Assembly (NCBI GenBank): GCA_035529635.1
Contig: DATKWJ010000022.1
Span: 1,362-65,361 of the forward strand
Direction of reading: 5' to 3'
Source: Patescibacteria group bacterium
GTDB taxonomy: Bacteria; Patescibacteriota; Minisyncoccia; Minisyncoccales; RBG-13-42-11
Length of the DNA: 64,000 nucleotides
Below, in pieces: positions 260 through 63,736 of the stretch. The notes beneath the pieces are model-generated. The model searched no databases and was not told the DNA's origin. It saw only the letters and a list, made by a program, of their open reading frames with translations. The position numbers and the translations under genes were made by a program. The stretch's first letter is position 1. Each line of letters opens with the position of its first letter.

Positions 260-261
260 CA

Positions 262-808: not shown

Positions 809-828
809 TCAAACTTGAACAGACGCAA

Positions 829-855: not shown

Positions 856-860
856 AATTA

Positions 861-2204: not shown

Positions 2205-2269
2205 TCTTTTCTCCTCTCTTCTTCCATTATTTTTTTGTTAAGCTGCAGTCTTTCTGTTTTTATCGTTTT

Positions 2270-4046: not shown

Positions 4047-4431
4047 TTTTGTAAGTCAATCGGTTATTTGCTTCTTGATACGGCAGCCATTGAAAACCCG
4101 CATGCTCCCCGGAGATTTTTATTTCTTTTTCTGCCGTGCCGGCCAGATAAAAAGTCACGAATTTGAAAACGGTTTTCCCCTGCCATTTGAAGAAATAACT
4201 GATTATTTCTCTGAATCCCTTGATGAAATCAATGTCCGACAGGCCGGTTTCCTCCCTGACTTCTCTTTTGACGGCGGTGATTTCATCTTCCCCTTTCTTA
4301 ATATGGCCTTTTGGCAAATCCCAGTAATCTTTTTTGGCCCGGGAACCGCCAGGATAGTGTAAAAGCAAAAAGAACGCCTTATCGCCTTCCTTTCTGAAAA
4401 TTATCGCGCCGGCCGAACGTTCCACCGGCAT
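3991..4431 (-). CDS. NUDIX hydrolase
   Basis: Nudix box GHIKKGEDEITAVKREVREETGL. I prefer the ATG at 4431 (MPVERSAGAIIF), which sits just after the polX stop, over the track start at 4473, which would overlap polX. Confidence 0.8.
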   Translation of the reverse strand: MPVERSAGAIIFRKEGDKAFFLLLHYPGGSRAKKDYWDLPKGHIKKGEDEITAVKREVREETGLSDIDFIKGFREIISYFFKWQGKTVFKFVTFYLAGTAEKEIKISGEHAGFQWLPYQEANNRLTYKNAKEILEKANNFLSEKGL

Positions 4432-4432
4432 A

Positions 4433-6196: not shown

Positions 6197-6208
6197 CTCT
6201 TTATTTTA

Positions 6209-14263: not shown

Positions 14264-15298
14264 ATGCTGGAAATAGACGGCTCCGTCGGGGGCCAAGTTT
14301 TAAGAACCGCCTGCGCTCTCTCGGCAATAACCAAGCAGCCTTGCCGTATTTTCCATATCCGCCGGAATCGGCCCAAGCCCGGTTTAATGCCCCAGCATCT
14401 TCTGGGAATACAGGCTCTGGCCGAGCTTTGCCGTGGCCGTTTAGAAGGAGACAGGCTTAATTCCGAAGAAATCAATTTCTGGCCAACGGAAATCGTGGCC
14501 AAAAACCTGCACCTGAAAATTGAAACCGCCGGCAGTATCACTCTGATGCTACAGACTTTGCTTCCCCTGTCTCTGGTAACAGCCGAACCGATGAAAATAA
14601 TTTTTGAAGGCGGTGCGACCGACACTTTCTTTTCGCCGACTATTGATTATTTCCGCTGCGTCTTTTTAAAAATCTTGGAAAAAACGGGGATCAAGATTGA
14701 AACAGATGTTTTAAAACGGGGCTATTATCCCGAAGGCGGAGCAAAAGTTGAAGTGAAGATTTATCCTTCAAAACTGGAAAAAATCAAGCTGACTGAAAGG
14801 GGAAATCTCAAAAAAATTCTGATGATTTCCGGCGCTGCCGATTCTCTGAAAAGCAAAAAAGTGGCGGAAAGGCAGCTGGCCGGAGTCAAAGAAATCTTCG
14901 GGAAACTGAATCTGCCTTCTGAAGAAAAAATCGAATACTACGAAACACGGTCTCCCGGCAGTCAAATTTGCCTGGCTGCGGAATTCGCTCTCGAATCGAC
15001 TGATACGGCCGCTGTTTTTATGGGAACCGACAATTTGGGTAAACTGGGCAAACGGGCCGAAGACATCGGCAAAGAAGCTGCTTTGGAATTATTGAAAGAA
15101 CAGAAATCCGGAGCTTGTCTGGATAAACACTCAGCCGACCAAATTCTTCTTTATCTGGCTTTGGCCGGCAGCGGCAGTTCTGCGACTGTTTCCGAAATTA
15201 CGGAGCATTGCCTGACCAATATCGGAACAATTGAAAAATTTTTAAAAGGAAAATTCGGGATAAAAAACAATCTGATTATTTGGCAATCCCTAAAATAA
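14264..15298 (+). CDS. rtcA: RNA 3'-terminal phosphate cyclase
   Basis: 344 aa with MLEIDGSVGGQVLRTACALSAITKQPCRIFHIRRNRPKPGLMPQHL and the HSADQIL region containing the catalytic His. Confidence 0.9.
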   Translation: MLEIDGSVGGQVLRTACALSAITKQPCRIFHIRRNRPKPGLMPQHLLGIQALAELCRGRLEGDRLNSEEINFWPTEIVAKNLHLKIETAGSITLMLQTLLPLSLVTAEPMKIIFEGGATDTFFSPTIDYFRCVFLKILEKTGIKIETDVLKRGYYPEGGAKVEVKIYPSKLEKIKLTERGNLKKILMISGAADSLKSKKVAERQLAGVKEIFGKLNLPSEEKIEYYETRSPGSQICLAAEFALESTDTAAVFMGTDNLGKLGKRAEDIGKEAALELLKEQKSGACLDKHSADQILLYLALAGSGSSATVSEITEHCLTNIGTIEKFLKGKFGIKNNLIIWQSLK

Positions 15299-19426: not shown

Positions 19427-20875
19427 TTATTCGCCTTTAATCACCGCCAAAGGAACGAGTTTGGCGACCTTTTTCGACAAACCCGCCCAATGGGCTATTT
19501 CCGCCACTTGATCGACGTCCTTGTAAGCCATTGGCGCTTCTTCGGCGATTCCCTGCCATGACCGGCACTTAACCAATATGCCTTTTTCTTTCAGTCTTTT
19601 GACGACTTCCTCCCCTCTGACCGCTCTGGCAGCTGCATGTCGCGACATCGCCCGACCAGCGCCGTGGGCAGTCGAATAGAACGCCTCTTCTCCCTGTTTT
19701 GTACCAACCATTACATAGGAAGCCGTACCCATGGTGCCGGGCAGAATCGTCGGCTGGCCGGTTTCTCTGTATTTTTCCGGGATTTCAGGATGATTCGGCG
19801 GAAAAGCTCTGGTGGCGCCTTTGCGGTGGACCGCCACTTCGGCCTCTTTTCCGTCAATAACGTATTTTTCTTTTTTAATGATATTATGGGCGATGTCGTA
19901 AAGGATTGCCAAAGAAGAATTTTCCTTTCCCAAAACATTCTGCCAAGATTTCCTGATGAAATGAGTTATCATTTGCCTGTTAGCCCAAGCGTAATTGGCG
20001 GCTGCCGCCATAGCTTTGAAATATTTCTGGCCTTCAGGAGAGTTGAACGGCACACAGGCAAATTCTTTGTCTGGAACTTTTATTTTATAGCGCTGCATGG
20101 CCGGGATCATCATCTTCAGATAATCGGTGCAAACCTGGTGCCCGAGGCCCCTGGAACCGGTATGAACCGTGATAACTATTTGACCTTTAAACAGCCCGAA
20201 GATTTCAGCAACCTGTCTGTCGAATATTTCAATGACTTTTTGGATTTCTATAAAATGGTTGCCGCTGCCCAATGTTCCTATTTGGTCCTGGCCGCGTTTT
20301 TTGGCAAACTCGGAAATAAAAGAGGCATCGGCTTGGGGAAGTTGTCCGCCAGATTCGCAATTTTCCAAATCCTCTTTTTCGCCATAACCCTGTTCAACCA
20401 GTTCTTTTGCCCCTTCTTCCAAAATTCTGTCTATTTGTCCGATGGAAAGCTTTGTCTGCCGGCCTCGGCCCAAACCGGAAGGGATTTCTTTTTGGATTTC
20501 ATCGGCTAAATTCTCCAATTGAGAAAGCCCGATGTCCTTTTCCGAATATGTTGATTTCAAAAGCTTCATGCCGCAATTGATGTCGAAACCGCAGGCGCCT
20601 GGTGAAATGACGCCTTGATGGATGTCAATCGCCCCGACAAAGCCGATTGGGACAGAATAACCTTCATGGCAGTCAGGCATAGCCAGAGCGTACTTGGTTA
20701 TGCCGGGTAAAACGGTTCCGTTCAATAACTGAAAAATCGACCTGTCTTGGAGCACTTCAGTCAGCATCTCTTCCGAAGCGTAAATTCTGGCCGGCACTTT
20801 CATGTCGGCCCTGAAACTTTTCGGAATTTCCCAGAGATAATCGGCTATCCGGATGAAATCTTTTTTAGAAACCAT
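19427..20875 (-). CDS. rtcB: RNA ligase RtcB
   Basis: 482 aa with MPDCHEGYSVPIGF, GFDINCGM, HTGSRGLGHQV and HGAGR, the canonical RtcB metal and GMP-His motifs. Confidence 0.95.
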   Translation of the reverse strand: MVSKKDFIRIADYLWEIPKSFRADMKVPARIYASEEMLTEVLQDRSIFQLLNGTVLPGITKYALAMPDCHEGYSVPIGFVGAIDIHQGVISPGACGFDINCGMKLLKSTYSEKDIGLSQLENLADEIQKEIPSGLGRGRQTKLSIGQIDRILEEGAKELVEQGYGEKEDLENCESGGQLPQADASFISEFAKKRGQDQIGTLGSGNHFIEIQKVIEIFDRQVAEIFGLFKGQIVITVHTGSRGLGHQVCTDYLKMMIPAMQRYKIKVPDKEFACVPFNSPEGQKYFKAMAAAANYAWANRQMITHFIRKSWQNVLGKENSSLAILYDIAHNIIKKEKYVIDGKEAEVAVHRKGATRAFPPNHPEIPEKYRETGQPTILPGTMGTASYVMVGTKQGEEAFYSTAHGAGRAMSRHAAARAVRGEEVVKRLKEKGILVKCRSWQGIAEEAPMAYKDVDQVAEIAHWAGLSKKVAKLVPLAVIKGE

Positions 20876-33168: not shown

Positions 33169-34479
33169 ATGGCGGAAATTTCAAAAAAAATCGTCGGCCA
33201 AATAACCATACCTCAGGAAAAATTCGATCTCTTCCAGAAAAAGATAAAAAACATTTTCGATTTAAAAAAAGAAATTCAAAAAGCATTGGATAAAAGCGCC
33301 ACCGAGATTTTGGAAATAATTGTCGGCGGAGCGATTACTCTGGATGCTTCCGACATCCATATCGAACCGGAAGAGAAAATAACCAGGCTACGGCTGAGAA
33401 TCGACGGGATTCTGTTGGATGTCATCACTTACCAGCAAAAAACATACGGAACTCTGCTTTCCAGAATCAAGCTCCTTTCCGGACTTAAATTAAACGTTGC
33501 TGACCGGCCCCAAGATGGCCGTTTTTCCGTTTTAATAGACAGTTCACCAATTGAAATCAGGACTTCCGCTTTGCCGGCAGAGTACGGAGAAGCGATCGTC
33601 CTAAGGCTTTTGAATCCTAAAAATTTAATTGAGATCAAGGATTTGGGCTTGAGGTCCGATTTGCTCGGTATTTTTGAAAAAGAAATCAAAAGACCGAATG
33701 GCATGATTATCGTCACCGGACCCACTGGTTCGGGAAAAACCACCACCCTTTACGCCATCTTGAAAAAAATCAACAAGCCGGAAATAAAAATCATCACCAT
33801 CGAAGACCCGGTGGAATACCATCTTCAGGGCCTTTCCCAGACCCAAGTTGACCCGAAAAAAGATTACACTTTCGCCAGCGGACTTAGATCGATTATGCGT
33901 CAGGACCCAGATGTAATTTTAATAGGTGAAATTAGGGATTTGGAAACAGCTGAAATCGCCTGCCAGGCGGCCTTGACCGGCCATTTGGTTTTTTCGACCC
34001 TGCACACCAACGATGCGGCCGGCGCCGTAGCCAGATTGATTGATCTGGGCATCCGCCCCATTACCATTGCTCCGGCCATCAATATAGTCATTGCCCAGCG
34101 TTTGCCGAGAAAGATTTGCAAAGAATGCGTCAAATTCGTTCAGGCGCCGGCGCCGGAACTGGCAAAAATCAGAGAAGGTTTAAAAGGAGTGCCAAAAGAA
34201 ATCCTGCCTTCTTCTCTCTCCGACCCGAAATTGAAAATTCCCCAAGCTGTCGGCTGTAAAAACTGCAACTCTACCGGTTACCGCGGCAGAATTGGCATTT
34301 ATGAAACATTCTTGATCGACGATAAAATGGAAAAATTCATTTTAACCTCGCCTTCCATTGTGGATATAAGGGAATCGGCCATAAAAAACGGCATGGTTTT
34401 AATGCATCAAGACGGCTTGATCAAGGTTTTGGAAGGCGTTACCACCATAGAAGAAATCGAAAGAGCGACCGGAGAATAA
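33169..34479 (+). CDS. GspE/PilB-family type II/IV secretion (pilus assembly) ATPase
   Basis: 436 aa with Walker A GPTGSGKTTT, Asp box, Walker B VILIGEIRD and His box VFSTLHTND, plus the tetracysteine CKEC...CKNC. Confidence 0.85.
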   Translation: MAEISKKIVGQITIPQEKFDLFQKKIKNIFDLKKEIQKALDKSATEILEIIVGGAITLDASDIHIEPEEKITRLRLRIDGILLDVITYQQKTYGTLLSRIKLLSGLKLNVADRPQDGRFSVLIDSSPIEIRTSALPAEYGEAIVLRLLNPKNLIEIKDLGLRSDLLGIFEKEIKRPNGMIIVTGPTGSGKTTTLYAILKKINKPEIKIITIEDPVEYHLQGLSQTQVDPKKDYTFASGLRSIMRQDPDVILIGEIRDLETAEIACQAALTGHLVFSTLHTNDAAGAVARLIDLGIRPITIAPAINIVIAQRLPRKICKECVKFVQAPAPELAKIREGLKGVPKEILPSSLSDPKLKIPQAVGCKNCNSTGYRGRIGIYETFLIDDKMEKFILTSPSIVDIRESAIKNGMVLMHQDGLIKVLEGVTTIEEIERATGE

Positions 34480-40309: not shown

Positions 40310-41449
40310 TTAACTATTTTTAATAGGCATCACCAAATAAAGATAATTTTCTTCGTCTTTCAGTTTTAAAACACCCGGCTTTTCCGAACCGGACAGCTGC
40401 AAAACCGCTTCCGGTTTTTTTTGAGGTAGAGAACTGATATTTAACAGGCCGTCCAACAGAAACCGGTAGTTAAAAGAAATCTCGCAGGATTTTCCTTCAA
40501 CCTTGCCGTTTATAAAACTTTGATATTCCCCGACCTCAGAATTCTGGCTGAAAAAATTAATTCTGTTTTTAGAAGAATCGATCTTCAATTTAATTTCATT
40601 AATCTTTCCGCTGAAAAGCGAGGCTAACTTGATTTGGTTAATAAATTCTTCAAGAGGAAAAACAAGACGGGTTTCGTGTTTTTTAGGGATAATTTCCTGA
40701 TAATTAGGGTAATCCCCTTCGATCAACCTCGAAATAAATTGAATTTGAGGATGGGGAATTTCAGCAAAAGAAGTTTCAAACAAAATTTGATTCGGAGAAA
40801 AATAGATCGTCAAAATTCCTTCCTTCTCGCCGAAAATATTGATAATTTCCTTAGCTGCTTTCTGAGGCAGGATTAAAGAATAATCTTTGGAAATATTGCT
40901 ATTTAAATAAATTTTCTTTTCTGCCAAACGGAAGCTGTCGGTAGCCGCCATTGTTATTAAATCTTTTTGGAAAAGAAAATATATTCCGGAAATTTCCGGT
41001 TTAGTCGAAGAAAGACTGGCAATATCCGCCACACTACTCAAACCTTTACAAAAAGGCTTGATTTGAACTTCAATTTTTTCTTCATTGGAAATTTGAGGTA
41101 TAAGAGGAAAATCTTCCGGATTAACGCCTTTTATTATTGTGTGGTGATTTTCGCATTCAATATTCAGATTAAGATCTTTTAATTCCAAATTTACCGATTT
41201 ATTTGGTAAAAAATTAATGAAACTGGATAATATTTTTGAAGAAACCGCGATTTTTCCTTCTTTTTCCGTCTTAACCAAGGCCCACCATTTTAATCCCACT
41301 TCCAAATCAGTAGCGATTAAATTTAAAAAGTTTTTTTCCACCGAAATTAAAACATTATTCAAAATCGGCAAATTTATGGATTTGGCCGAAATTTTTTCAA
41401 TTATATTAATACCTTCTTTGAATTTATCTTTTAAAATTGTAATCTTCAT
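40310..41449 (-). CDS. dnaN: DNA polymerase III beta sliding clamp
   Basis: 379 aa. MKITILKDKFKEGINIIEKISAKSINLPILNNVLI is typical, and the gene lies downstream of dnaA. Confidence 0.9.
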   Translation of the reverse strand: MKITILKDKFKEGINIIEKISAKSINLPILNNVLISVEKNFLNLIATDLEVGLKWWALVKTEKEGKIAVSSKILSSFINFLPNKSVNLELKDLNLNIECENHHTIIKGVNPEDFPLIPQISNEEKIEVQIKPFCKGLSSVADIASLSSTKPEISGIYFLFQKDLITMAATDSFRLAEKKIYLNSNISKDYSLILPQKAAKEIINIFGEKEGILTIYFSPNQILFETSFAEIPHPQIQFISRLIEGDYPNYQEIIPKKHETRLVFPLEEFINQIKLASLFSGKINEIKLKIDSSKNRINFFSQNSEVGEYQSFINGKVEGKSCEISFNYRFLLDGLLNISSLPQKKPEAVLQLSGSEKPGVLKLKDEENYLYLVMPIKNS

Positions 41450-41678
41450 TGTTTATTAATCTAATAAATAAATTATAAATTTATTGTTGATTATTAGTGG
41501 TGTTGATAATTTTTATTTAAACCGTTTTTGAATATATTTTAAAAAGTTCAAAAATATACTAAAAGAAGTTTGATTTCCTGTGGATTTTTTTAATATCTCT
41601 GTTTATCCACAATTTTCCCACGGGAAATCTTATTTTTATCCCCGGTTTCTTGATAATTTTTTTATTTTAAAATACAAA
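41450..41678. other. candidate oriC segment (dnaA-dnaN intergenic)
   Basis: 229-bp AT-rich spacer. It holds one perfect DnaA box, TTATCCACA (41603-41611), and near-matches TGTTGATAA (41501-41509), TGTTGATTA (41486-41494), TGTGGATTT (41579-41587) and TCTTGATAA (41648-41656). It also has A/T runs usable as an unwinding element. Confidence 0.55.
41603..41611 (+). promoter_or_regulatory. perfect consensus DnaA box
   Basis: TTATCCACA read directly from the sequence. Confidence 0.6.
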
Positions 41679-43028
41679 TTAAGCACTGAAAATACGTTGT
41701 TTTATCAAGTCAATTTCATCATTAAGATTTTCGTTGTTTTTCAATTCTTTGATGATTTTTTCACAAGAATGAATGACGGTGGTATGGTCTTTCCCATTGA
41801 ATTTTTTACCTATAAAAGGATAGGAACTTTTTAATAATTCCCTTAATAAAAACATAGCTATTTGGCGCGGTTTGACCACTTCTTTTTTTCTTGAAATTGA
41901 AAACATGTCTTTTTCTTTTAAATCGTAAAATTCGGATACCGCCTGAATTATTTTTTTATAATTGGCCACTTTATTTGGGGAAAGAAACAGCGTTTTTAAC
42001 AGGGATTTGGCTATTTCCAAATCGGGCGGCTGATTGTTTATTTTCTCATAAGTGATTAACCTGTTTAACGCTCCCTCAAGCTCCCTTATATTTTTTTGAA
42101 TATTGACCGCGATATAATCCAAAACTTCGTCCGAGAAATTTATTCCTTTTTCCTGAATTTTGGTTTTAAGAATGGCTATTCTTGTTTCATAATCGGGATA
42201 GCTGATGTCGCCGATCATCCCCCCTTCAAAACGTGACCTTAATCTTTCGGTCAGGGCCGGAATGGCTTTCGGCGGACGGTCCGAAGAAATGATTATTTGT
42301 TTGTTTTCTTCATACAAAGCGTTGAAAATATGGAAAAATTCTTCTTGGGTTTTTTCTTTGCCGGCCAAAAATTGGACGTCGTCTAAAATTAAAACATCGA
42401 TGGCTTTATAGGCGTTTTTAAACCGTTCGATCTCATGGTTTTTTATTGACGAAACCACGCCGGTGGTGAATTTTTCAGACGGAATATATTTTACTTTTTT
42501 CTGCGAAAAATTCTTAATTACGGCGTTACCAACGGATTGTAGAAGATGGGTTTTTCCCAAACCCACTCCACCGTAAATAAAAAGAGGGTTGTAAACCAAG
42601 CCCGGTTTTTTTGAAACCTGCCAACCTGCGGCATGAGCCAATTCATTAAAAGATCCCACTATAAAATTTTCAAAGCTGTAGCGGGGGTTAAGATTCGTTT
42701 CTTTGTCGATTTTAAACTCTTCAAATTCAAGCTGTCCTGCGCCGGAAACGGAAACAGACGGTTTTCTGATTATTTTCAACTCTGATTTGCCGACAACGTA
42801 TTTGACCTCCTTTATCTCTTTATCCAGGTTATAAAAAATCTTGAAAATGGTTTTTCCATATTTGTTTTCCAACCATTCTTTGGCAAAAGAATTGGGGGTG
42901 GAAACGATTATCTGTCCTTCTTTGTAATCGGTTATACCAGTATCCTTAAACCAGGTGGCAAAATTGGCTTGCGAAATATTTAATTGAATTTGGGCTAAAA
43001 CCGCCTGCCAAAGCTCTTCTTTTACCAT
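41679..43028 (-). CDS. dnaA: chromosomal replication initiator DnaA
   Basis: 449 aa with Walker A GGVGLGKTHLL, Walker B LILDDVQFL, sensor motifs and the C-terminal DNA-binding GKKFNGKDHTTVIHSCEKI. Confidence 0.95.
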   Translation of the reverse strand: MVKEELWQAVLAQIQLNISQANFATWFKDTGITDYKEGQIIVSTPNSFAKEWLENKYGKTIFKIFYNLDKEIKEVKYVVGKSELKIIRKPSVSVSGAGQLEFEEFKIDKETNLNPRYSFENFIVGSFNELAHAAGWQVSKKPGLVYNPLFIYGGVGLGKTHLLQSVGNAVIKNFSQKKVKYIPSEKFTTGVVSSIKNHEIERFKNAYKAIDVLILDDVQFLAGKEKTQEEFFHIFNALYEENKQIIISSDRPPKAIPALTERLRSRFEGGMIGDISYPDYETRIAILKTKIQEKGINFSDEVLDYIAVNIQKNIRELEGALNRLITYEKINNQPPDLEIAKSLLKTLFLSPNKVANYKKIIQAVSEFYDLKEKDMFSISRKKEVVKPRQIAMFLLRELLKSSYPFIGKKFNGKDHTTVIHSCEKIIKELKNNENLNDEIDLIKQRIFSA

Positions 43029-45162: not shown

Positions 45163-46956
45163 TCAAGCTAAATCTTTTTTAGCTTTTTTTATTTTCAAAA
45201 GTTCTTCCGGAGAAGTGGTAATGAATTGGTCTTCGGCGTAAGAAGCGATTACTTTCACGGCCACGCGTTTTTGACCGGCAAAGAAGATTCCTTCTCCGAT
45301 GTCACATTCCAGCAGTAGATATTTTTCTTCTTCGGTTATGTTGAAAGTTTTTTGAATGGTGGTGATGGCAGCCGGCGATTGCTTCATTAAAAACTGCAGA
45401 GAGGAGTTGGTGATGATCGGCTTGCCGTAATCGGATTTCATGAAATCGTTGACGTCTTGGGTGATGGTCGTCACACCTAGCCAGTATTTTCTTCCTCTCT
45501 TGCAAATACCGAACAGGAAAGAAGCACCTTCTTCAGACCGCATCATCCACCAGGCTTCGTCAACCACTAAAATTCTTTTCTTCAACTCCGACCTGACCTT
45601 GTTCCAAACGTAACGCATAACAATAAACATGGCTGTCGGCCTTAATTCGTCTTCCATATCCCTGATACCGAAAACAACGAGGGGTTTTTGGGTTGAAATG
45701 TTGGTCTGCTGGTTGAAAAAAGAGGCGAAAGTTCCTTTGGTGAATTTCCTTAATTTTCTGACCAAGGCTTCCGTTCCCTCCATACCCTCGAGAATCTGTT
45801 CTAAATCTTCCATCAAGGGAATTCTTTCCTGCCAGTCGGCCGGATCGGTCTCAAGAGTAATATCTTTGGCGGCGTAGGTTTCGGTCAGCGCCCTGTCTAT
45901 AATACTGTCTTCTTCCGGCGTCAAACCGCCCAGCATGATTCTCAAAAGGCCAACCAGGTTGATGATGTTCGAGCGGAGGACGTCTTCCGGATTTTCGTCT
46001 TCCTGGGGGACCGGCAAATCAAAAGGGTTGATGTGGTGGGGCGAAGACAGGGAAAAATTAAGGAAAGAGCCGCCGGTGGCATCAGCCAGATTCCTGTATT
46101 CGTTTTCCGGATCAAGGATTATCACATCCACGCCGGTCATCAGATATCTCAGGATTTCCAATTTGACCGCGTAAGATTTACCGGAGCCGGATTTGGCGAA
46201 AATCACGCTGTTGGCGTTTTCCAGACTGAAACGGTCGAACAATATCAAAGAGTTGTTATGCTTGTTGATGCCGTATAAAATCCCTTCGTTCGAACTTAAA
46301 TCAAAAGAAATAAAAGGGAAAATGGAAGAAAGGGGTTCCGTATTCATCGAGGTATGGACCTGGATTTGATCCAAGCCGTAGGGCGAGGTTGAATTGAATC
46401 CCTCTTTCTGTTGATAAAGGGTCGGTTTGATATAAATCAATTTCGATTCCAAAATCGACCTCAAAGTTATTTCCACTTCTTTTATCTTTTCAAGAGTATT
46501 GCCGTAAACGGTCAAATAAAGGCCGAATCTGAACATTTTTTCCTGAGCGGTCTGCAATTTATCCCTAAGATCTTCTAGATCCCGATAAGCCGTTTCTAAA
46601 ATCGGATTCCTGACCAGGCCCTTTTCTTCGTTTTCCATGATTTCCGCTTCCACTTCCGTCACTTTTCTTCTTAGTTGTTTCAAAATCATTCCCGTGTCAA
46701 CCGGATGAATGTGAAAACTGATATCCATAGGCTGGTCGAGGTTGATGATGGGAGACAGCCAGGCCGTACTCAGATATCTCGGATAAGAAAAGATGAAAAA
46801 CGATTTGGCAAATCTTCTGCCCAGTTTCAGATGGTCGGATTTCACCTCGATCGAAGAGGGCGCGATAATATCTTTGATTTCCACGGCTGGCGCTTCGAAA
46901 AAACTTTCCATCTCTGCCGAAGTTTTCTTTTTAAAATTGAAAAAAGGAAATTTCAT
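45163..46956 (-). CDS. VirB4/TraC-like type IV secretion ATPase
   Basis: 597 aa with Walker A FAKSGSGKSYAVK, Walker B RILVVDEAWWMM, and an N-terminal VirB4-type domain (FFIFSYPRYLSTAWLSPII). Confidence 0.8.
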   Translation of the reverse strand: MKFPFFNFKKKTSAEMESFFEAPAVEIKDIIAPSSIEVKSDHLKLGRRFAKSFFIFSYPRYLSTAWLSPIINLDQPMDISFHIHPVDTGMILKQLRRKVTEVEAEIMENEEKGLVRNPILETAYRDLEDLRDKLQTAQEKMFRFGLYLTVYGNTLEKIKEVEITLRSILESKLIYIKPTLYQQKEGFNSTSPYGLDQIQVHTSMNTEPLSSIFPFISFDLSSNEGILYGINKHNNSLILFDRFSLENANSVIFAKSGSGKSYAVKLEILRYLMTGVDVIILDPENEYRNLADATGGSFLNFSLSSPHHINPFDLPVPQEDENPEDVLRSNIINLVGLLRIMLGGLTPEEDSIIDRALTETYAAKDITLETDPADWQERIPLMEDLEQILEGMEGTEALVRKLRKFTKGTFASFFNQQTNISTQKPLVVFGIRDMEDELRPTAMFIVMRYVWNKVRSELKKRILVVDEAWWMMRSEEGASFLFGICKRGRKYWLGVTTITQDVNDFMKSDYGKPIITNSSLQFLMKQSPAAITTIQKTFNITEEEKYLLLECDIGEGIFFAGQKRVAVKVIASYAEDQFITTSPEELLKIKKAKKDLA

Positions 46957-50608: not shown

Positions 50609-53600
50609 TTATTCCGCGCTTATTAAATCGTACAGCGGACCCTGGCATTTGTTCATGTCGTTGGCGGCGACTAAGAAGCTTTTCGTATTGTCATATTGGC
50701 AAATCATTTCCTTGTCAATCCAGTTAGGATCAGGGTTGGCAAGGAATTTCGATTTTACCGCGCATAAGCCGTTACTGGGGCCGATTATCTCGTAATAATA
50801 GGTTATTACGCCTATTTCCGCCAAATCCATGGAAACGATATATTGGGCCGGTCGGCATTTTTCGAATCTTTCTTCGATGCAATTCTGAACTTCTCCGTTC
50901 AGGTCGGGGTTATTCGGCCCGATCTCTCCGCAATCTACCATGGTCCCAGCCGCCGCCGCTTCTTTCGTCAATTTGTCGATCGTTTTTATCATGCTTCCTC
51001 CTGAAGTGGTCAAGACGAGTTTGTCTTTGATTATCGCCCAACAAATGCCGAAATTGTTCGAAGGGAAGGAGGCATAGCGGAAAACATTGTTTTGGTAAGT
51101 TGTTTCCTTGAAAACGACGGGGGCAGCCGATCCTTCTTTCCCCAGAATTTCAAAAAGATTTTCAGTGTCTTTTTCTATGGTCGATTCCCAAGAAAGCATT
51201 GAACCAGCGAGATTCTCTTCTTTTATTTTTGCTATGAATCCCAAACGGTTGGCTCCTTCGTTGCTATAAACGAACAGGGTAAAATTATCGTCCAGCTTTC
51301 CTAAAATCTCTTCGGGAATTTCAGTCGCTGCGGCAGCGAAAAATTCCCTCAAACCGACGATTTCGTTTTTATCCGTATTTTTAAATAAGATTCTGGCATA
51401 TTCTTCCTTTCCGAAGGTTTTTCCCAAAATCTGACTGAGCAGTGTTGGAATTTCCGAGATATCCGTAACTTCCGCGGTTTCCGTGGTATTGGTCGAAATT
51501 AAAGCATCGGGGATTGTAATTTCCGGCTTTCCGGGCGTTTTTTCTTCAGTTTTTTCTTCCAAAGAAGGGAGAACTATCGGCTCTTCGGGCGTTTTGTCTT
51601 TTTGCATGACGAAAAACAAATAAGCCAAACCGGCCAGTGACAGAACGAATGCGCTGATTAAAGTTCTGACGAACAGTTTTTGGGCAAAGGATGGTTTCTC
51701 AGGCGGTTTGGGGATTATGGTTTCGGTTATTCTTTTTTCTGTTTCCGGGTTTTCGGGAGGGAATTTCGTTTCGTCCGCCCTCAGCCGGTTTCTGCCGAAA
51801 AATATCTTTTTTTCCGTCCAGAGATTTTCTTCCTGCCTTCTTTCCGTTTCTTTGGTAATTCTCTTTTTTATTTCCTCTTCAATAATTTTTTTTCTTTCTT
51901 CCTCTCCTCTTTTTTTTGTTTTTTCCGCTTGGTTTACCTTTTCTTCGTTAAATTTCGGCTTTTGGATTTCAACCGTTTCTTTTTCTTTTTTCTTTTTTTC
52001 CTCTTCCGGGAGCTCGGCGGCCGGAAGTTTTTCTTCTTCTGGCGGAGATATTTTAAGCAGCCGGTCGATTTCAATTAATCTTTCTTTTAAAGGTTTTTCT
52101 TTTCTTAAAATTTCCTGTTTTTCTTTTTCCGTTTTTTTCAATTCGATGGAAAAATCTTTTTCTTCTTGTTCCAATTTCCATCTTTTGCCCTCTAGGGCTT
52201 TTCTATCATCTTCGATTTTCCATCTGCTTTTCTCAATTTTTTTCTGTTCCGCCGGGTTTAAAGCTTCTTTTTCTTTTCTTTCGATGTTTCTGATCATTTC
52301 TTCGGTCGTCTGCTCTTCCGCCAAAATTTCTTCCAAACCGTCTTCGATTTTGTTCTTTTGGCCTGTCAGTTCGTTCTTTTTGTTTTCTATCGTTTTTTCT
52401 TCTTCAATCAATTGCGCCAGTTCGTTTTTCAAGCGCGATTTTTCCTGAATAAGCCTTTTTTCTTCTTTTTTCTGCAGAATTTTATCTCTTTCCTTTTTCA
52501 ATCCTTCCTCGTTTCTCGAAATCTCCCCGTATTTCAACTCAAGACCCTTGATTTGCTCTTTTACTTTTTCTATTTTTTCCTGGATCGTCCATTTGGCGTT
52601 TTCCAATTCCCGCCTTCTGGTCGTTGTTTCCCATCTCCGTTTCTCAATTTGTTTTTTCTTTTCCAGAGGGGTTATTTTTTCCAATTCCTCTATTTCCAGA
52701 ATTTTGTTTTCAACGATGTCTTCTTCTCCTAAAATAGGTTTCAGCTGGGTTTCGAAATTTTTAATTTCCGTCAAAAACTGTTCTTTTTCTCCGTCCAACA
52801 CCTCTTTTTTCGGAATGAGGTCTTCAATTTCCTTGTTGATGTTGATTAATCTTTGCTCTTCAGCTTTTTCCGCCAGAAGTTTTTCCTGTTTTATCCTTTC
52901 TTCTCTTCTGGCTATTCTTTCCTCTTCCTGTCTTTTCTTTTCTTCCTCAGCCTCTTTTATTTTCCTTACTCTTTCTTCCTCCTGCCTTTTTCTTTCCTCT
53001 TCCTGTCTTTTCTTTTCTTCCTCAGCCTCTTTTATTCTCCTCAGCCTATCTGCTTCCGCCTGGGCAGCCGCTCTTTTCTTTTCTTCTTCCGCTTCCTTTA
53101 TTTTCCTTATTCTTTCCTCTTCCTGTCTTATTTTTTGTTCTTCTTCCTGTTTTTTCCTTAATTCTTCTTGTTTTGTTTTTTCGTTTTCTTCTTTCTTTTT
53201 TAACTCTTCCTCTTCTTTCAATTTCCTCAGTCTGTCCTCTTCCGCCTGGCTAGCAGCTTTTCGTTTTTCCTCATCTGTTTCTTTTATTTTTTCTTCTTGT
53301 TCCGCCCTTTCCTCTTCTTGTCTTTTCTTTTCCTCTTCTTCCCTTAGTTTTTTTAATTCTTCATTTTCTTTTTGGGCAGCTATTCTTTTTCTTTCTTCTT
53401 CCGCTTCCTTTATCTTTTTTATTCTTTCCTCTTCCTGTCTTTTCTTTTCTTCTTCTTTCTCGATTGTTTCTGTTTTTTTGATTTTGAGCGGTTCTGTTTC
53501 TTTGGCCTTCGGTTCAAATCCGGAAATTTTCTCTCTTTCTATCTGAAAACCACGTTCTCTCAATTTAACGATGTCTTTTTTCATCGTTTTAATATCCTCC

Positions 53601-53653
53601 CTTTTCAGTAGCATCGTTTTTTCTTTATTTATGAAGTCGAATTCTTCGGCCAT
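50609..53653 (-). CDS. 1014-aa hypothetical: E/K/R-rich repeat region + single TM + Cys-containing C-terminal domain
   Basis: It is the only long ORF that is not low-complexity antisense. About 640 aa of EEEKKRQEEER-type repeats are followed by a TM helix (LFVRTLISAFVLSLAGLAYLFFVM), then about 330 aa of ordinary composition ending in a roughly 120-aa segment with several Cys. Confidence 0.6.
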   Translation of the reverse strand: MAEEFDFINKEKTMLLKREDIKTMKKDIVKLRERGFQIEREKISGFEPKAKETEPLKIKKTETIEKEEEKKRQEEERIKKIKEAEEERKRIAAQKENEELKKLREEEEKKRQEEERAEQEEKIKETDEEKRKAASQAEEDRLRKLKEEEELKKKEENEKTKQEELRKKQEEEQKIRQEEERIRKIKEAEEEKKRAAAQAEADRLRRIKEAEEEKKRQEEERKRQEEERVRKIKEAEEEKKRQEEERIARREERIKQEKLLAEKAEEQRLININKEIEDLIPKKEVLDGEKEQFLTEIKNFETQLKPILGEEDIVENKILEIEELEKITPLEKKKQIEKRRWETTTRRRELENAKWTIQEKIEKVKEQIKGLELKYGEISRNEEGLKKERDKILQKKEEKRLIQEKSRLKNELAQLIEEEKTIENKKNELTGQKNKIEDGLEEILAEEQTTEEMIRNIERKEKEALNPAEQKKIEKSRWKIEDDRKALEGKRWKLEQEEKDFSIELKKTEKEKQEILRKEKPLKERLIEIDRLLKISPPEEEKLPAAELPEEEKKKKEKETVEIQKPKFNEEKVNQAEKTKKRGEEERKKIIEEEIKKRITKETERRQEENLWTEKKIFFGRNRLRADETKFPPENPETEKRITETIIPKPPEKPSFAQKLFVRTLISAFVLSLAGLAYLFFVMQKDKTPEEPIVLPSLEEKTEEKTPGKPEITIPDALISTNTTETAEVTDISEIPTLLSQILGKTFGKEEYARILFKNTDKNEIVGLREFFAAAATEIPEEILGKLDDNFTLFVYSNEGANRLGFIAKIKEENLAGSMLSWESTIEKDTENLFEILGKEGSAAPVVFKETTYQNNVFRYASFPSNNFGICWAIIKDKLVLTTSGGSMIKTIDKLTKEAAAAGTMVDCGEIGPNNPDLNGEVQNCIEERFEKCRPAQYIVSMDLAEIGVITYYYEIIGPSNGLCAVKSKFLANPDPNWIDKEMICQYDNTKSFLVAANDMNKCQGPLYDLISAE
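52850..53480 (-). repeat. imperfect internal DNA repeats within the E/K-rich gene
   Basis: The plus-strand motif CCTCTTCCTGTCTT recurs at 52921, 52996, 53116 and 53428, extending to CCTCTTCCTGTCTTTTCTTTTCTTC in three of the four copies. CCGCTTCCTTTAT recurs at about 53091 and 53401. A 75-bp (25-aa) period is visible between the first two copies. Confidence 0.6.
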
Positions 53654-58545: not shown

Positions 58546-58616
58546 CGGGGTGTAGTATAACGGCAGTATACAGGGTTCGGGACTCTGCGGTCTGGGTTCA
58601 ATTCCCAGCACCCCGA
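58546..58616 (+). tRNA. tRNA-Pro (anticodon CGG)
   Basis: Hand-folded 71 nt: acceptor CGGGGTG/CACCCCG, anticodon arm CAGGG-TTCGGGA-CTCTG with G37, T arm CTGGG-TTCAATT-CCCAG. The D arm is short with G-U pairs. Confidence 0.8.
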
Positions 58617-58620
58617 CATT

Positions 58621-58691
58621 GGGCCTGTGGTTCAACGGTACAACACTACATTCGCATTGTAGTAATGGCGGTTCGATTCCGCCCAGGTCCA
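58621..58691 (+). tRNA. tRNA-Ala (anticodon CGC)
   Basis: Hand-folded 71 nt: acceptor GGGCCTG/CAGGTCC containing the G3:U70 Ala identity pair, anticodon arm CTACA-TTCGCAT-TGTAG, T arm GGCGG-TTCGATT-CCGCC. Confidence 0.85.
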
Positions 58692-58720
58692 TATTAGACG
58701 ATTTGTTTTTCGCTTTGCTT

Positions 58721-61255
58721 ATGATTCTGATTTGGATTATTTTCAGTTATTTTTTGGGATCGGTACCTTTCGGTTACTTGATCTCCCGCTTTTCCGGCAA
58801 AAACATTTTAGAAATCGGCTGGAGAAAAACTTCCGGCTCAAATGTTTTCAGGAATGTCGGCAAATGGCAGGGAATATTAACCGGTCTTTTTGATGTAGCC
58901 AAAGGATATCTGGCTGTTTGGGGAGCTGCCAGGATCGGCCTTTCTCCGGAGATTCAAGTTTTTTCCGGAGTTGCGGCGGTTATCGGCCATAACTGGTCTT
59001 TGTTTCTGCGTTTTGCCGGCGGCCGGGGCATCGGCACTTTTATCGGTGCTTTTCTGGCGATTTCTCCGCCAATACTTTTTCTTTCAGTTGTTCCTTTAGT
59101 CGTTCTGGCTTTGCTTTGGGACGCGGCTGTCGGCACGCTTTTCTTTCTGGCCAGCGCTGTTTTTATTTCTCTTTATTTGAATCAGTTTGAAACAGCCGGG
59201 CTTTTCACCGTTATTTGCCTGGTGCCGATTTTTGTCAAAAGATTGAGTCCGCTTGAAGAAATCATAAAAGCAAAAAACAAAGCTGCTCTGATTGCTAGTC
59301 GTCTTTTTTTCGACAACGAGACGGCCAATTGGCAATTGAGGATAAAAAGAATTATTCAATCTCTTTTATTTCCGCCCAAACTCGGCTGGCAGGCGGCCAA
59401 GTTCGGAGCCAAGATGGCCAAGAAGCCGATTGAGAAATGGGTTTTCAGAAACCATGAAAAAATAGTCACGGAGATCACTATTGACGATTTTAAAAGAATG
59501 ATGATTGCCGCTGCCAAGAAAATCGTGGCGCATCAGGAAGAAATCAACAGGATCAACGTCTTTCCGGTGGCGGACAAAGACACGGGTTACAATCTGGCCG
59601 CCACTTTGCTGGGGGTCGAAGGCACGATTTATCCGAAAAGCTATTCGACTTTCCGCGAACTGACCCAGGACATCAAGACAGCCGCCATGATCAACGCCCG
59701 GGGCAATGCCGGCATGATTTACACCGGCTATGTCATTGAAGTTTTGGACAGGATAAAACATTTGGAAACGATTGACGCTTTCCATTTGGCTCTGGCTATG
59801 AAAAAAGGGATAAAAGCCTCCCGCCTGGCCATTCTCGAGCCGGTTGAAGGCACTATTCTGGATGTCATAAAAACAGCCGGCCAAAAATCCTTTGAATTCG
59901 CCAAAATCAGAAAAGAGAAAAACATCATTAAAGTGTTGGTGGAAGCCCATAAAGCCAGCCAGATTGCTTTAAAAGAAACAAAAGAGAAGTTGGCGGTTTT
60001 GAAGGAGAACGACGTGGTTGACGCTGGCGCCCTGGGTTTCGTAAAAATTCTGGAGGCCTGGATCGAGAGCTTGAAAGGAATGCCGGTATCGTCCGAAAGT
60101 AATTTTTCTTCTTCCTCTTTTGTTGCTATTCAGCAAACAAAAGAGGAATTGAAATACAGTAAAGAGGTTGTTTTGATGTTTGAAAAAACTCCCGGAACAG
60201 AGATGGAAGATTTGAAAAAAGAATTGTCTCTGTTCGGCGACAGTTTGGAGATCTTGGAAACAGTCGGCAAAATCAAACTGCACATCCATACCAATCAGCC
60301 GGAAGCGGTCCTGGATAAGTTCAAAAACTTGCCGGGGTTTGAATCAAGAGTCGAAAATATGGAAATTCAGATTGGGAGAAAAGGGAAAAAACCGCTCGGT
60401 TTGGTGGTGGATGAAGTTGCTGATTTGCCTAAAGATTTTTTGGAAAAAAACGATATCTTCGAGGTACCTTTCTTAACCAGGTTTCCGGCCGGGGAAATTA
60501 TTGTTTCCAAAGAAGAAATTTACGGAAAAATGGAACAAGCTTTGAAAACCGGAAAACCTTTGCCGACCACTTCAGCCCCTTCTTTCCAAGAGTTTTTTTC
60601 CGCCTTTGAAAAAGCTTTTGAAAAATTCGAAAAGATCCTGGTTATCACGATTTCCAGCAAGCTGTCCGGCGCTTACAGTTCAGCCAGGATCGCCAGAAGC
60701 ATTTATAAGAAACCGGAAAAGCTCAATATATATGTATTTGACTGCAATACGGCTGAAGTGGCCGAGGGTCTGGCAGCCGTCAAAGCAATCGAATTGATTT
60801 CGCAGGGCAAAAAAACCGAAGAGATCGTGGAGATACTGAGAGGTTTCTGTCCCAAGATTACACTGGTCGCCTGCCTTAGCGATTTCAGATACGTGGTGCG
60901 CGGCGGCAGACTTAAATTGCCGAAGATATTCGTCGGCCCTGTTTTTTTTATCCAGAAAATAGGAATCAGATTTTTGGTCGGATTGAAGAACGGCAAGCTC
61001 AGGTTTTTCAGCGTAGCTTTGGGTAAAGATGCGGCCGGAATTCTGGCAAAGGAAATCGACAAACAAAGAAACGGCCGGAAGATCAGATTGGCCATTGCTT
61101 ACGCCGGCCGCCGGGCAGAAGCTGATAAGCTCGAATCTCTTTTGCGGGGAAAACCGGGCATAGAAATTTCATTCATCTCCCCTGTTTCGCCGGTGGTAGC
61201 CACCCATACCGGCCCCGGCGCTTTATTGATAGGCTTTTATCCTGTTGACGAATGA
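58721..61255 (+). CDS. triple fusion: PlsY acyl-phosphate:G3P acyltransferase + FakA-like Dak2 kinase module + DegV (FakB-like) fatty-acid-binding domain
   Basis: 844 aa from ATG 58721. PlsY motifs: YFLGSVPFGYLI, FDVAKGY, GHNWSLFLRFAGGRGIGT. Dak2 motifs: INVFPVADKDTGYNL, RGNAGMIYTG, DVVDAGALGF. FakA middle segment: FGDSLEILETVGKIKLHIHTNQPE. DegV motifs: LPTTSAPSFQEF, ISSKLSGAYSSA. The track start at 58619 lies inside tRNA-Ala. Confidence 0.8.
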   Translation: MILIWIIFSYFLGSVPFGYLISRFSGKNILEIGWRKTSGSNVFRNVGKWQGILTGLFDVAKGYLAVWGAARIGLSPEIQVFSGVAAVIGHNWSLFLRFAGGRGIGTFIGAFLAISPPILFLSVVPLVVLALLWDAAVGTLFFLASAVFISLYLNQFETAGLFTVICLVPIFVKRLSPLEEIIKAKNKAALIASRLFFDNETANWQLRIKRIIQSLLFPPKLGWQAAKFGAKMAKKPIEKWVFRNHEKIVTEITIDDFKRMMIAAAKKIVAHQEEINRINVFPVADKDTGYNLAATLLGVEGTIYPKSYSTFRELTQDIKTAAMINARGNAGMIYTGYVIEVLDRIKHLETIDAFHLALAMKKGIKASRLAILEPVEGTILDVIKTAGQKSFEFAKIRKEKNIIKVLVEAHKASQIALKETKEKLAVLKENDVVDAGALGFVKILEAWIESLKGMPVSSESNFSSSSFVAIQQTKEELKYSKEVVLMFEKTPGTEMEDLKKELSLFGDSLEILETVGKIKLHIHTNQPEAVLDKFKNLPGFESRVENMEIQIGRKGKKPLGLVVDEVADLPKDFLEKNDIFEVPFLTRFPAGEIIVSKEEIYGKMEQALKTGKPLPTTSAPSFQEFFSAFEKAFEKFEKILVITISSKLSGAYSSARIARSIYKKPEKLNIYVFDCNTAEVAEGLAAVKAIELISQGKKTEEIVEILRGFCPKITLVACLSDFRYVVRGGRLKLPKIFVGPVFFIQKIGIRFLVGLKNGKLRFFSVALGKDAAGILAKEIDKQRNGRKIRLAIAYAGRRAEADKLESLLRGKPGIEISFISPVSPVVATHTGPGALLIGFYPVDE

Positions 61256-61279
61256 TTTTATTCAGTTATAATTAAATCA

Positions 61280-61309
61280 GTCCGTTCAGAAACGGACATA
61301 TTTTTTAAA
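61280..61309 (+). terminator. rho-independent terminator
   Basis: GTCCGTT-CAGA-AACGGAC followed by ATATTTTTT, 25 nt after the stop. Confidence 0.55.
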
Positions 61310-62699: not shown

Positions 62700-63284
62700 A
62701 TGAATCTCATACCTACGGTTATCGAAAAAAGTCAATACGGAGAAAGGGCTTACGACATCTACTCCCGTCTTTTAAAAGACAGAATCATTTTTTTGGCCGG
62801 GCCGGTTACCGATCCTTTGGCCAATTCCATAATCGCCCAGATGCTCTTTTTGGCTTCCAAGGATTCGAACAAGGACATCCAGCTTTATATCAATACGCCG
62901 GGCGGCTCGGTTACGGCCGGCCTGGCCATTTACGATACCATGCAGTACGTTAAGCCGGACATTTCCACGGTCTGCATCGGCTTGGCCGCTTCCATGGGAG
63001 CCACTTTGCTGGCAGCCGGGAAAAAAGGCAAGCGCTTCGCCCTGCCCAATTCCCAGATTTTGCTGCATCAGGTGGCGGGCGGAGTCAGCGGTGAAGCGGT
63101 GGAAATTGAAATTACCGCCAAACAAATCATTAAAATCAAAGAAAAACTCAACAAAATCCTGGAAAAGCATACCAGCCAGCCCTTGCAGAAAATAGAAAAA
63201 GACACTGACCGGGATTTCTATTTATCGGCCGAAGAAGCCAAAGAATACGGTTTGATAGACGAGGTTATTAAACCGAAAGAATAA
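62700..63284 (+). CDS. clpP: ATP-dependent Clp protease proteolytic subunit
   Basis: 194 aa with RIIFLAGPV, the catalytic Ser in [14 protein letters not shown], and His in ILLHQ. Confidence 0.95.
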
Positions 63285-63736
63285 TGCCGAAAATGAAGAC
63301 AAAGAAAAACATTTACAAAAATTTATTAACGCTGTCTATTTTGGCAGTGTTATTTTTTTCTTCCATACCGGGATTTGTCCAAGCCGCCTTGGTCCCTTGC
63401 GGCAGGTCTGAGGATGATCCTTTCACCAGTATTGATGAAAGCCAAGCTTGCCAGCTTTGCCATGTTTTCGTCCTGTTTGATAATATCGTTGATTTTATTC
63501 TTTTTGAAGTTGTCCCCCTGCTGGCTGTTTTAATGGTAGTTATTGCCGGGGTGATATTAATGACTGCCTCGGATAACCCCGCCAATGTCAATAAAGCAAA
63601 GGACGTTTTAAAAGCGGTTGTTATCGGCCTTGTCCTGATTTACGGCGCTTGGCTTTTAATCAACTTGTTTTTCCTGGTAATTGGATTGGCCGATTGGAAA
63701 ATGAATGAGGGCTGGTTCAATTATCCTTGTCCTTAA
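63284..63736 (+). CDS. T4SS-type pilin-like protein (TrbC/VirB2-like, CPR 'T4SS pilin' family)
   Basis: 150 aa with a signal peptide (..GFVQA|ALVPCG), the Cys motif C..C (ACQLCH) and two hydrophobic helices, ending NYPCP. The start shares 1 nt with the clpP stop (TAATG). The family call is from memory. Confidence 0.55.
   Translation: MPKMKTKKNIYKNLLTLSILAVLFFSSIPGFVQAALVPCGRSEDDPFTSIDESQACQLCHVFVLFDNIVDFILFEVVPLLAVLMVVIAGVILMTASDNPANVNKAKDVLKAVVIGLVLIYGAWLLINLFFLVIGLADWKMNEGWFNYPCP

Follow-up and report, generated by a model that had tools for sequence, protein, structure and literature searches.

A PlsY-like membrane domain fused to a predicted single-chain fatty-acid kinase in Patescibacteria

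Which source supplies the acyl-phosphate that PlsY needs in a bacterium without PlsX or acyl carrier protein (ACP)? The question was posed as an open one for Nealsonbacteria, in which PlsY and PlsC are present and PlsX and ACP are absent (Probst et al. 2020, PMC7242380). It is part of a wider unresolved question in the literature, that of lipid acquisition and membrane assembly in the Patescibacteria (the candidate phyla radiation, CPR). We analyzed a gene at 58721..61255 (+ strand) of a 64 kb stretch of DNA from a Patescibacteria group bacterium, the whole of which is called the window here. The gene encodes, in this order, a PlsY-like transmembrane (TM) domain, a conserved tail, a linker, a Dak2 domain, a linker, a FakA middle domain (FakA_M), a linker, and a DegV domain. 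Our favored reading, held with moderate confidence, is that the product is a membrane-anchored, largely self-contained enzyme, which would activate free fatty acids and pass on the acyl group. Such a fusion plausibly answers the question raised for the PlsX-less Nealsonbacteria. With it, the cell could probably make membrane lipid from scavenged fatty acids and do without the usual machinery of fatty-acid synthesis (FAS).

The reading frame of the gene was checked first by its length and start. An earlier note, made from the letters of the window alone, had claimed a single uninterrupted frame of 844 codons that joins PlsY, a FakA-type Dak2 kinase, and a DegV protein. The list of open reading frames (ORFs) agreed: one uninterrupted + strand ORF ends at 61255, and the ATG at 58721 gives 844 codons plus stop. 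Every peptide motif quoted in the note was found in the translation. Assuming a stop-codon frequency of roughly 3/64, we estimate the chance of an open frame of 844 codons at ~1e-18. A longer version starting from the TTG at 58619 (878 aa) was ruled out. Two tRNA genes found by ARAGORN, tRNA-Pro(cgg) at 58546-58617 (+) and tRNA-Ala(cgc) at 58620-58692 (+), fill the upstream stretch, which fixes the start codon at 58721. These tRNA genes adjoin one another, with 2 nt between them, and are located between the gene of the CCA-adding enzyme and the fusion gene. In the relatives compared (loci L002, L004, and L019), the same slot holds a free DegV gene, a methyltransferase gene, and other genes.

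Pfam profiles recovered all three modules of the earlier note in one polypeptide, each with a score over its curated cut-off. The seven-TM domain (variant subfamily of the PlsY family, aa 1-175, 58721..59245, +) was delimited by Pfam, phmmer, the AlphaFold2 (AF2) model, and conservation; the G3P_acyltransf profile (PF02660) covered aa 9-168 (E 2e-30, 106.4 bits vs. a cut-off of 24.1). The cytosolic tail of this module (aa 176-213, 59246..59359, +) was recognized by its conservation, and it was predicted to be helical, with a predicted local distance difference test (pLDDT) value of about 63-82. The linker between the membrane module and the kinase (aa 214-245, 59360..59455, +) was poorly conserved, had pLDDT below 50, and coincided with the point where the gene is split in relatives. 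The Dak2 or FakA_N-type ATP–Mg domain (aa 246-455, 59456..60085, +) was supported by Pfam (aa 282-448, E 4e-25, 89 bits, over the gathering score), by alignment with the N-terminal domain of S. aureus FakA (SaFakA_N) and with S. suis FakA (SsFakA), and by Foldseek. For the FakA middle (FakA_L/M) domain (aa 478-547, 60152..60361, +), the evidence came from FakA-like_M (PF21645; aa 477-551, E 3e-11, 43.6 vs. 24.9 bits), the SsFakA alignment, and conservation. The full-length DegV or FakB-type fatty-acid-binding domain (aa 555-844, 60383..61252, +) was matched by Pfam DegV (PF02645) at aa 560-841 (E 6e-47, 160.7 bits, profile positions 3-279 of 280), by the NCBIfam DegV domain model TIGR00762 (177.7 bits, over the cut-off of 99.7), by alignments, and by Foldseek. 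The NCBIfam equivalog and subfamily models gave a different picture. The PlsY equivalog TIGR00023 scored 95.7 vs. a cut-off of 137.2. The models for FakA (NF038248), YloV (TIGR03599), and FakB1 matched as well, all below their cut-offs, and the YloV match covered only positions 1-303 of 530. The protein is expected to work like FakA, FakB, and PlsY together, yet it is no certified FakA, FakB1, or PlsY equivalog.

To see how far the architecture extends, 5.8 billion clustered proteins were searched, which yielded 1131 matches; the best 120 were examined. One fragment excepted, these 120 were 814-920 aa long, covered 97-100% of the query, and had the same four Pfam domains. The four-domain architecture was present in at least 118 distinct 90%-identity clusters (51-98% identity) drawn from NCBI, JGI, ENA, and Logan. 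A 98%-identical protein of 844 aa was present in independent assemblies, and the most distant full-length representative, P0123, was 45% identical. When clustered at 50%, the full-length fusions were reduced to about three representatives (P0021, P0087, and P0123), so the clade is real but fairly narrow. An assembly chimera or a frameshift artefact that fused adjacent genes is next to inconceivable. Adjacent-gene states do occur, since one lineage has a split version; however, the recurrence of the same uninterrupted architecture in independent data, with linker lengths kept across the homologues, refutes an artefact for practical purposes. These sequences show a genuine fusion on which purifying selection acts.

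The named members in NCBI belonged to Candidatus Pacebacteria, the Parcubacteria group, and the Patescibacteria group. Species-representative genomes with the fusion included Candidatus Nealsonbacteria RBG_13_42_11 and metagenome-assembled genomes of Candidatus Paceibacterota (at least six loci, from a single-protein query), and locus L002 is from a Nealsonbacteria genome. The host type proposed in the earlier note, CPR/Patescibacteria, was borne out by these Parcubacteria-type names (Pacebacteria, Nealsonbacteria). The gene order shared with the window was polynucleotide phosphorylase – NYN – (S15) – CCA enzyme – ... – fusion – NusA – ... – ClpP. The only name given to the fusion homologues in NCBI was "glycerol-3-phosphate acyltransferase"; across the databases, such proteins are at present labeled either so or as "hypothetical protein". 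The earlier note knew of no description of the architecture, and our literature search, which had most subscription journals outside its reach, likewise gave no paper on the triple fusion, the nearest item being one preprint sentence on Dak2–DegV fusions. We take it as certain that the architecture is displayed in domain databases.

The N-terminal domain is predicted to be an acyl-phosphate-dependent acyltransferase of the PlsY family with a cytoplasmic C-terminus. It matched PlsY of Aquifex aeolicus (aaPlsY, PDB 5XJ5) by phmmer with E 7.5e-19. The AF2 helices ran over residues 2-24, 48-71, 76-91, 104-114 (short), 116-132, 135-152, and 156-175. The seven-TM fold with a short fourth helix and a cytoplasmic C-terminus, as described for aaPlsY (PMC5700162), was thereby recovered, in likeness to the canonical enzymes of A. 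aeolicus and E. coli. Hydrophobic segments were confined to aa 1-175. K/R-rich loops at aa 22-50 and past aa 172 put the C-terminus of the PlsY-like domain on the cytoplasmic side, and the kinase was placed in the cytoplasm for this reason. Residues were mapped through three alignments (phmmer and two MAFFT), which agreed, and conservation was taken from the alignment with 120 PlsY-bearing sequences. The key residues were W34, K36, S40, R44, H90, G100-G101-R102-G103, and K173-R174. In aaPlsY, H92, T41, and the main-chain amides of K104-A107 hold the acyl-phosphate; the T41S and K104R mutants keep partial activity. This acyl-phosphate site (T41, H92, and G102-G103-K104-G105) was found throughout the family: S40 stands for T41 (Ser in 119 sequences, Thr in one), H90 for H92 (His in 116, Asn in four), and the G-G-R-G phosphate hole of motif 2, equivalent to G102-G105, was present in all 120.

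The kinase half was conserved in its ATP and Mg site. In Foldseek searches of the PDB, full-length SsFakA aligned over about 630 columns (E 5e-27), and the Dak2 domain superimposed on SaFakA_N with TM-scores of 0.88-0.94 and a root mean square deviation of 1.5 Å. In SaFakA, the ligands of ADP-(Mg)2 are N32, D38, D40, T41, N82, and D185, and a D38A/D40A double mutant has no activity in vivo (PMC9136124). Their equivalents N279, D285, D287, T288, N329, and D434 were invariant in 121 sequences, by which a decayed kinase is ruled out; the earlier note had counted a loss of these metal- and ATP-binding aspartates as evidence against itself, and no loss was seen. In the middle domain, the H-x-H pair (H521, H523) was invariant in the same 121 sequences. 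Its SaFakA counterparts H282 and H284 in FakA_L are, together with C240, each needed for about 100-fold of the activity (PMC9136124), and the Cys/His cluster of S. suis FakA forms a C1H3 zinc site (PMC10848957). The kinase thus described is, on alignment grounds, a Dak2 ATP/2Mg domain plus a FakA middle domain, flexibly linked to the membrane module. The linkers with low AF2 confidence (aa 214-245, 456-477, and 548-554), together with the low predicted TM-score (pTM) of the model, agree with the description of S. aureus FakA as freely rotating domains on flexible linkers (PMC9136124).

The domain at the C-terminus has the full DegV fold, both by profile and by structure; Foldseek superimposed it on fatty-acid-loaded FakB/DegV structures with TM-scores of 0.83-0.85. 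The carboxylate network of FakB reportedly consists of T61, S93, and H266, with R170 toward the acyl-phosphate (SaFakB2 numbering), and the H266A mutation is said to lower SaFakB2 activity about 1000-fold. Equivalents were taken from an alignment to structure 4X9X. The network of T, S, and H plus R was retained in the 121 sequences as T617 (Thr in 108, Ser in seven), S649 (Ser in 114), R730 (Arg in 119, Lys in two), and H829 (His in 103, Tyr in 16). In Firmicute FakA, this position is held by FakA_C, itself a reduced FakB/DegV-like fold (PMC9136124, PMC10848957). The fusion protein had no Pfam match to FakA-like_C (PF13684), with the full DegV in its place, and an ordinary FakA_C is ruled out by this, by the full DegV profile, and by the intact network. 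The domain therefore appears to be a complete fatty-acid binder of the DegV/FakB type and not a reduced FakA_C.

The surface that docks FakB to FakA was different. R202 (and L181) of FakB dock onto FakA_C according to S. suis data, and a charged wedge and groove have been described (PMC9136124). The column of the docking Arg was Phe in 66 and Leu in 42 of the 121 sequences, with Leu (L767) in the query. The adjoining column was Arg in 64 of the 121 and Ala in the query. The docking Arg was not conserved in PlsY-less Dak2–M–DegV proteins either. Its loss fits a covalent tether having replaced docking.

Relatives of the fusion gave further information on how the modules belong together. The earlier note had proposed a search for fused and split genes, and both exist. 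In addition to the fused clusters, a split form was found in a sister lineage (L009-L012), where a PlsY-like gene (220 aa) runs 17 nt into the beginning of a Dak2–M–DegV gene (634 aa). It occurred in 24 contigs (ENA, NCBI, JGI); the 634-aa part was 44% identical to the corresponding query part, and the gene break fell in the low-pLDDT linker at aa 214-245. A fusion alongside a split pair is classic Rosetta-stone evidence, which would indicate functional coupling. In one relative (L019, 8794-9985), genes for a CDP-alcohol phosphatidyltransferase (PgsA-like) and a CarS/CdsA-like CTP-transferase lie immediately upstream of the fusion and tie it to glycerophospholipid synthesis. Downstream of the fusion, the same locus has an H+-pyrophosphatase and a DedA/VTT protein.

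The kinase half was also found without PlsY, in more than 100 representatives at 50% clustering (585-645 aa), which matched query aa 250-840 in one stretch with 28-35% identity (28-44% for the PlsY-less single chains overall). All seven of the seven PlsY-less proteins scanned with Pfam consisted of Dak2, FakA_M, and a full DegV. They resemble the fusion in the three cytosolic domains, in their order, and in the kinase and DegV residues, and differ from it in having no membrane domain. We know of no biochemical characterization of these PlsY-less proteins. Dak2–DegV fusions were reported by Erni 2006, as cited in a passage of a preprint (bioRxiv 10.1101/2021.02.16.431466). The earlier note had described the gene as three separate Firmicute proteins joined into one. 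The modules stood, but the joining has to be revised, as Dak2–FakA_M–DegV is a pre-existing single chain with DegV at the FakA_C position. This chain is already known and widespread; the novelty is its union with a membrane enzyme, by which known pathway partners are fused with a divergent acyltransferase module.

From these observations, a reaction path can be proposed. The DegV domain would draw a free fatty acid from the membrane, and its carboxylate would be held by the T617/S649/H829 network and R730. Dak2 would then phosphorylate it, either in cis or between the subunits of a dimer that the middle domain forms. The product, a labile acyl-phosphate, would leave the kinase at the membrane surface beside the tethered PlsY-like domain, and this domain would move the acyl group to a phosphate-bearing glycerolipid precursor at the cytoplasmic face of the membrane. 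That acyl-phosphate made by the kinase is channeled to the fused acyltransferase is the reading with the best support, because the fusion is conserved, the split genes of the sister lineage overlap, and one relative has the CdsA-like and PgsA-like neighbors. The earlier note had the fatty acids channeled directly into lysophosphatidate. Lysophosphatidate as the product goes further than the sequence supports, since four residues of the glycerol-3-phosphate (G3P) pocket (S35, N37, H177, and N180 in aaPlsY) are invariantly replaced or absent.

Several observations weigh against this self-contained enzyme. The AF2 model, built on 48 family sequences, had a mean pLDDT of 80.3 and a pTM of 0.43; the individual domains were confident, and their mutual arrangement was not predicted. 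In the kinase, the equivalent of C240 was S480 in the query and Arg in 81, Lys in 16, Gln in 10, and Ser in seven family sequences. In SaFakA, C240A lowers the activity more than 100-fold, and C240S is likewise severely compromised (PMC9136124). Most PlsY-less relatives, unlike the fusion, keep this FakA_L Cys (103 of 126).

The acceptor side of the PlsY-like domain deviates further. In aaPlsY, S35, R45, K104, and N180 hold G3P, S142 and H177 are placed at its 2-OH, and H177 was indispensable in mutagenesis. In the fusion family, S35 and N37 are replaced by W34 and K36, both invariant, and the R45 position (44 here) is Lys in 100 and Arg in 17 sequences. Among 7,288 PlsYs, W and K are outside the three commonest residues at the S35 and N37 positions. 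Motif 3 (HxxNIxRL) has become an invariant K173-R174-L175-S176-P177 and leaves H177 and N180 without an equivalent; that of S142 was uncertain in the alignments. The G3P pocket (S35, N37, R45, S142, H177, N180) was thus not found in its canonical form. In place of motif 3, there is a new tail of about 40 aa with conserved S176-P177, E180, R194, F197-D198, and R207-I208, which is kept in the fused, split, and stand-alone variants. The variant subfamily is only 18-31% identical to canonical PlsY (query 27-28%). The PlsY-like part therefore seems to be a divergent paralogue subfamily, a member of the PlsY family and not a certified equivalog.

A catalytically dead domain, which merely anchors the fatty-acid kinase to the membrane, would account for the loss of S35, N180, and the indispensable H177, and for the score under the PlsY equivalog cut-off. 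We consider it improbable. About 40 TM-domain positions, including G-G-R-G, were invariant across 48 sequences at 53-87% identity; H90 was near-invariant; and new polar residues (W34, K36, K173-R174) had appeared, for none of which a mere anchor would have any need. The variant also occurs as a conserved stand-alone protein. The invariance of the replaced residues argues for an acceptor pocket that was remodeled and not one that decayed.

The stand-alone variant proteins (P0140, P0162, and P0220, with 60%, 51%, and 46% identity) add a point against a plain PlsY function. In three of three contexts (L007, L014, L015), the variant directly follows a second G3P_acyltransf paralogue, which keeps S35 in three of three cases, N37 in two of three, and H177 or N180 in addition. 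These tandem pairs suggest that the role of the variant may differ from that of canonical PlsY. At L014 (4403-6666) and L015 (3-2754), a free DegV gene stands before each pair, and the upstream paralogue is of a third subtype, with GSKNxGALNxLR, an 8-aa insert, and RH/AH in motif 3. In the L007 operon (1-6678; also L008), a near-canonical PlsY (196 aa) and a variant PlsY-like gene (225 aa, with 60% identity to the query domain) are accompanied by a FabK-like gene, two PF01553 (PlsC-type) acyltransferases, a biotin ligase, and subunits of acetyl-CoA carboxylase. This operon occupies the same position upstream of NusA–ClpP. Genes of fatty-acid synthesis are thus present in some close relatives.

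With the above in hand, the acceptor was considered. G3P, which would give lysophosphatidate, is the most likely one, at about even chances. Another phosphorylated glycerolipid is less probable; given the remodeled pocket, however, an acceptor of this kind, for instance a lysophospholipid, has to be taken seriously. With a lysophospholipid or lysophosphatidate as acceptor, the domain would stand in for PlsC without needing ACP, or it would re-acylate scavenged lysolipids. We hold this possible but doubtful. The pocket residues S35, N37, H177, and N180 are all replaced or absent invariantly while the acyl-phosphate site is kept, and the tandem position behind a G3P-type paralogue suggests a division of labor. 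CPR membranes are reported to be lysolipid-rich, and CPR genomes are without ACP, the usual donor carrier of PlsC (PMC7242380). Yet no second PlsY lies within 8-10 kb of any of the nine fusion loci, and Probst et al. mention no second PlsY in Nealsonbacteria, so the fused domain may be the sole enzyme of first acylation. Moreover, the conserved basic residues K36, K/R44, R102, K173, and R174 could rebuild a phosphate clamp for G3P, and the L007 operon has PlsC-type genes of its own. The choice between acceptors is drawn from sequence comparison. More tentatively still, the fused domain might be the founder of a class of acyl-phosphate-dependent acyltransferases with another acceptor (lysophosphatidate or scavenged lysophospholipids). 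If so, a new-class acyltransferase with a built-in fatty-acid kinase would form an ACP-independent machine for lipid re-acylation, which could explain diacyl lipids built from host-derived pieces in lysolipid-rich, FAS-less, ACP-less CPR bacteria.

The last points against a self-contained enzyme concern the fused DegV domain. Five of nine loci (L001, L002, L003, L004, and L019) have a gene for a free DegV just upstream of the fusion, so the fused DegV need not be the only or the actual FakB. At L004 (10971-13262), moreover, the DegV of a 763-aa fusion is reduced to a FakA_C-like remnant, with deletions that span the three segments (a, b, and c) which Firmicute FakA_C lacks compared with FakB1. 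Though a single case, it shows that the fused DegV corresponds to FakA_C as its positional homologue and is able to evolve in that direction; the L004 fusion may be a snapshot of the reduction from DegV to FakA_C. The fused DegV could then be a FakA_C-like docking or receiver domain generally, with the free DegVs as the true FakB shuttles and the protein as a two-function combination of a PlsY-like enzyme and FakA. Besides the free genes and the L004 deletions, this would fit the position of the DegV exactly where FakA_C is, as seen in the alignment with full-length SsFakA, and the FakB/DegV-like fold of FakA_C itself. We regard it as rather unlikely. The fused DegV keeps the complete T/S/R/H network, the full-length fold, and all inserts. 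The free DegVs checked have instead lost the His of the network: those beside the fusion at L002 (9989-10879) and L004 (9989-10873) and beside the PlsY pair at L014 (4403-5323) keep Thr, Ser, and Arg and have Ile, Leu, or Gln for His. In four of the nine fusion loci (L016, L018, L020, and the 64 kb window), no free DegV was found nearby. The roles of carrier and docking domain are also not mutually exclusive.

Taken as a membrane-anchored enzyme with its own fatty-acid kinase, the fusion differs from the FakA/FakB system of Firmicutes (S. aureus and S. suis; PDB 7RM7, 6W6B, 7W7H) in a few definite ways. The Dak2 N/D/D/T/N/D residues, the middle-domain H-x-H, a C-terminal domain of the EDD/DegV fold, the flexible linkers, and a DegV fatty-acid binder with the T/S/R/H network are common to both. 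In the fusion, however, the kinase and a complete fatty-acid binder form one chain, the full DegV replaces the reduced FakA_C, the conserved Cys (C240 in S. aureus, C244 in S. suis) and the FakB docking Arg are missing, and the unit is covalently anchored to a membrane enzyme. The single-chain, ATP-dependent DhaK–DhaL dihydroxyacetone kinase, known for example from Citrobacter, offers a second parallel, as it joins a substrate binder of the EDD fold to a DhaL/Dak2 domain that phosphorylates the bound substrate. By analogy, the fusion would act on a fatty-acid carboxylate and not on dihydroxyacetone; its domain order is reversed, and it adds FakA_M and a membrane acyltransferase.

If the reading is true, the fusion would supply the acyl-phosphate that the "PlsY" of PlsX-less, ACP-less CPR bacteria needs. 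It is a concrete and testable answer, in which free fatty acid and ATP would be enough. A natural single-chain Fak system would be useful for the still-debated mechanism of FakA (the roles of FakA_C and of the Cys/His cluster), and it is a candidate compact module for membrane building in synthetic cells. With the remodeled pocket for the acceptor and with PlsY paralogues in tandem, an unexplored diversity of acyl-phosphate-dependent acyltransferases comes into view.

The surroundings of the gene were inspected by consensus scan. A terminator-like hairpin at 61280..61297, 25 nt past the fusion stop codon, and a promoter-like TTGACG-16-TATAAT at 61245-61272, preceding nusA, were pattern matches only. 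Three antisense ORFs of 100-190 aa lie within the fusion gene (59366-59950, 59969-60289, and 60680-61095, all on the - strand); in all likelihood they are spurious and only mirror the coding frame.

The survey of the window, in which about 60 ORFs were scanned with Pfam, covered 64 kb and says little on the whole genome. No fab, plsX, plsC, cdsA, or pgsA gene was found among these ORFs of the 64 kb, and phmmer and hmmsearch against six-frame ORFs of the window found no second PlsY, free DegV, or FakA/Dak2. That fatty-acid synthesis is absent is taken from what has been published on CPR as a whole (including PMC7242380). The only other possibly lipid-related genes of the window encode an LPG_synthase_TM (MprF-like flippase) family protein (6866-7879, -), a short fragment of the major facilitator superfamily (6209-6832, -), and a choline/ethanolamine-kinase-like protein (13218-14204, -).

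The remaining gene content was typical of CPR, with dnaA, dnaN, pilins of the type IV secretion system (T4SS), a TraG-like ATPase, PilB, a ComEA-like protein, and large ORFs without Pfam matches. The TraG-like P-loop ATPase (45163-46956, -), a T4SS pilin (TrbC/VirB2-like; 63284-63736, +) directly after clpP, and the PilB-type ATPase (33169-34479, +) are typical CPR surface machinery. Genes for a PolX-PHP DNA polymerase (4433-6196, -), the RNA 3'-phosphate cyclase RtcA (14264-15298, +), and the RNA ligase RtcB (19427-20875, -) were also identified in this organism, whose genome is small. The dnaN and dnaA genes (40310-43028, -) lie beside the stretch of lowest GC (0.33 at 40-42 kb), and this is probably the replication origin region. 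A 1014-aa ORF (50609-53653, -) had no Pfam match. Two-thirds of it, from the N-terminus, are an extremely E/K-rich coiled coil; it also has one TM segment and a C-terminal domain that contains Cys. This ORF explains why GC and AT skew are strong at 52-54 kb.

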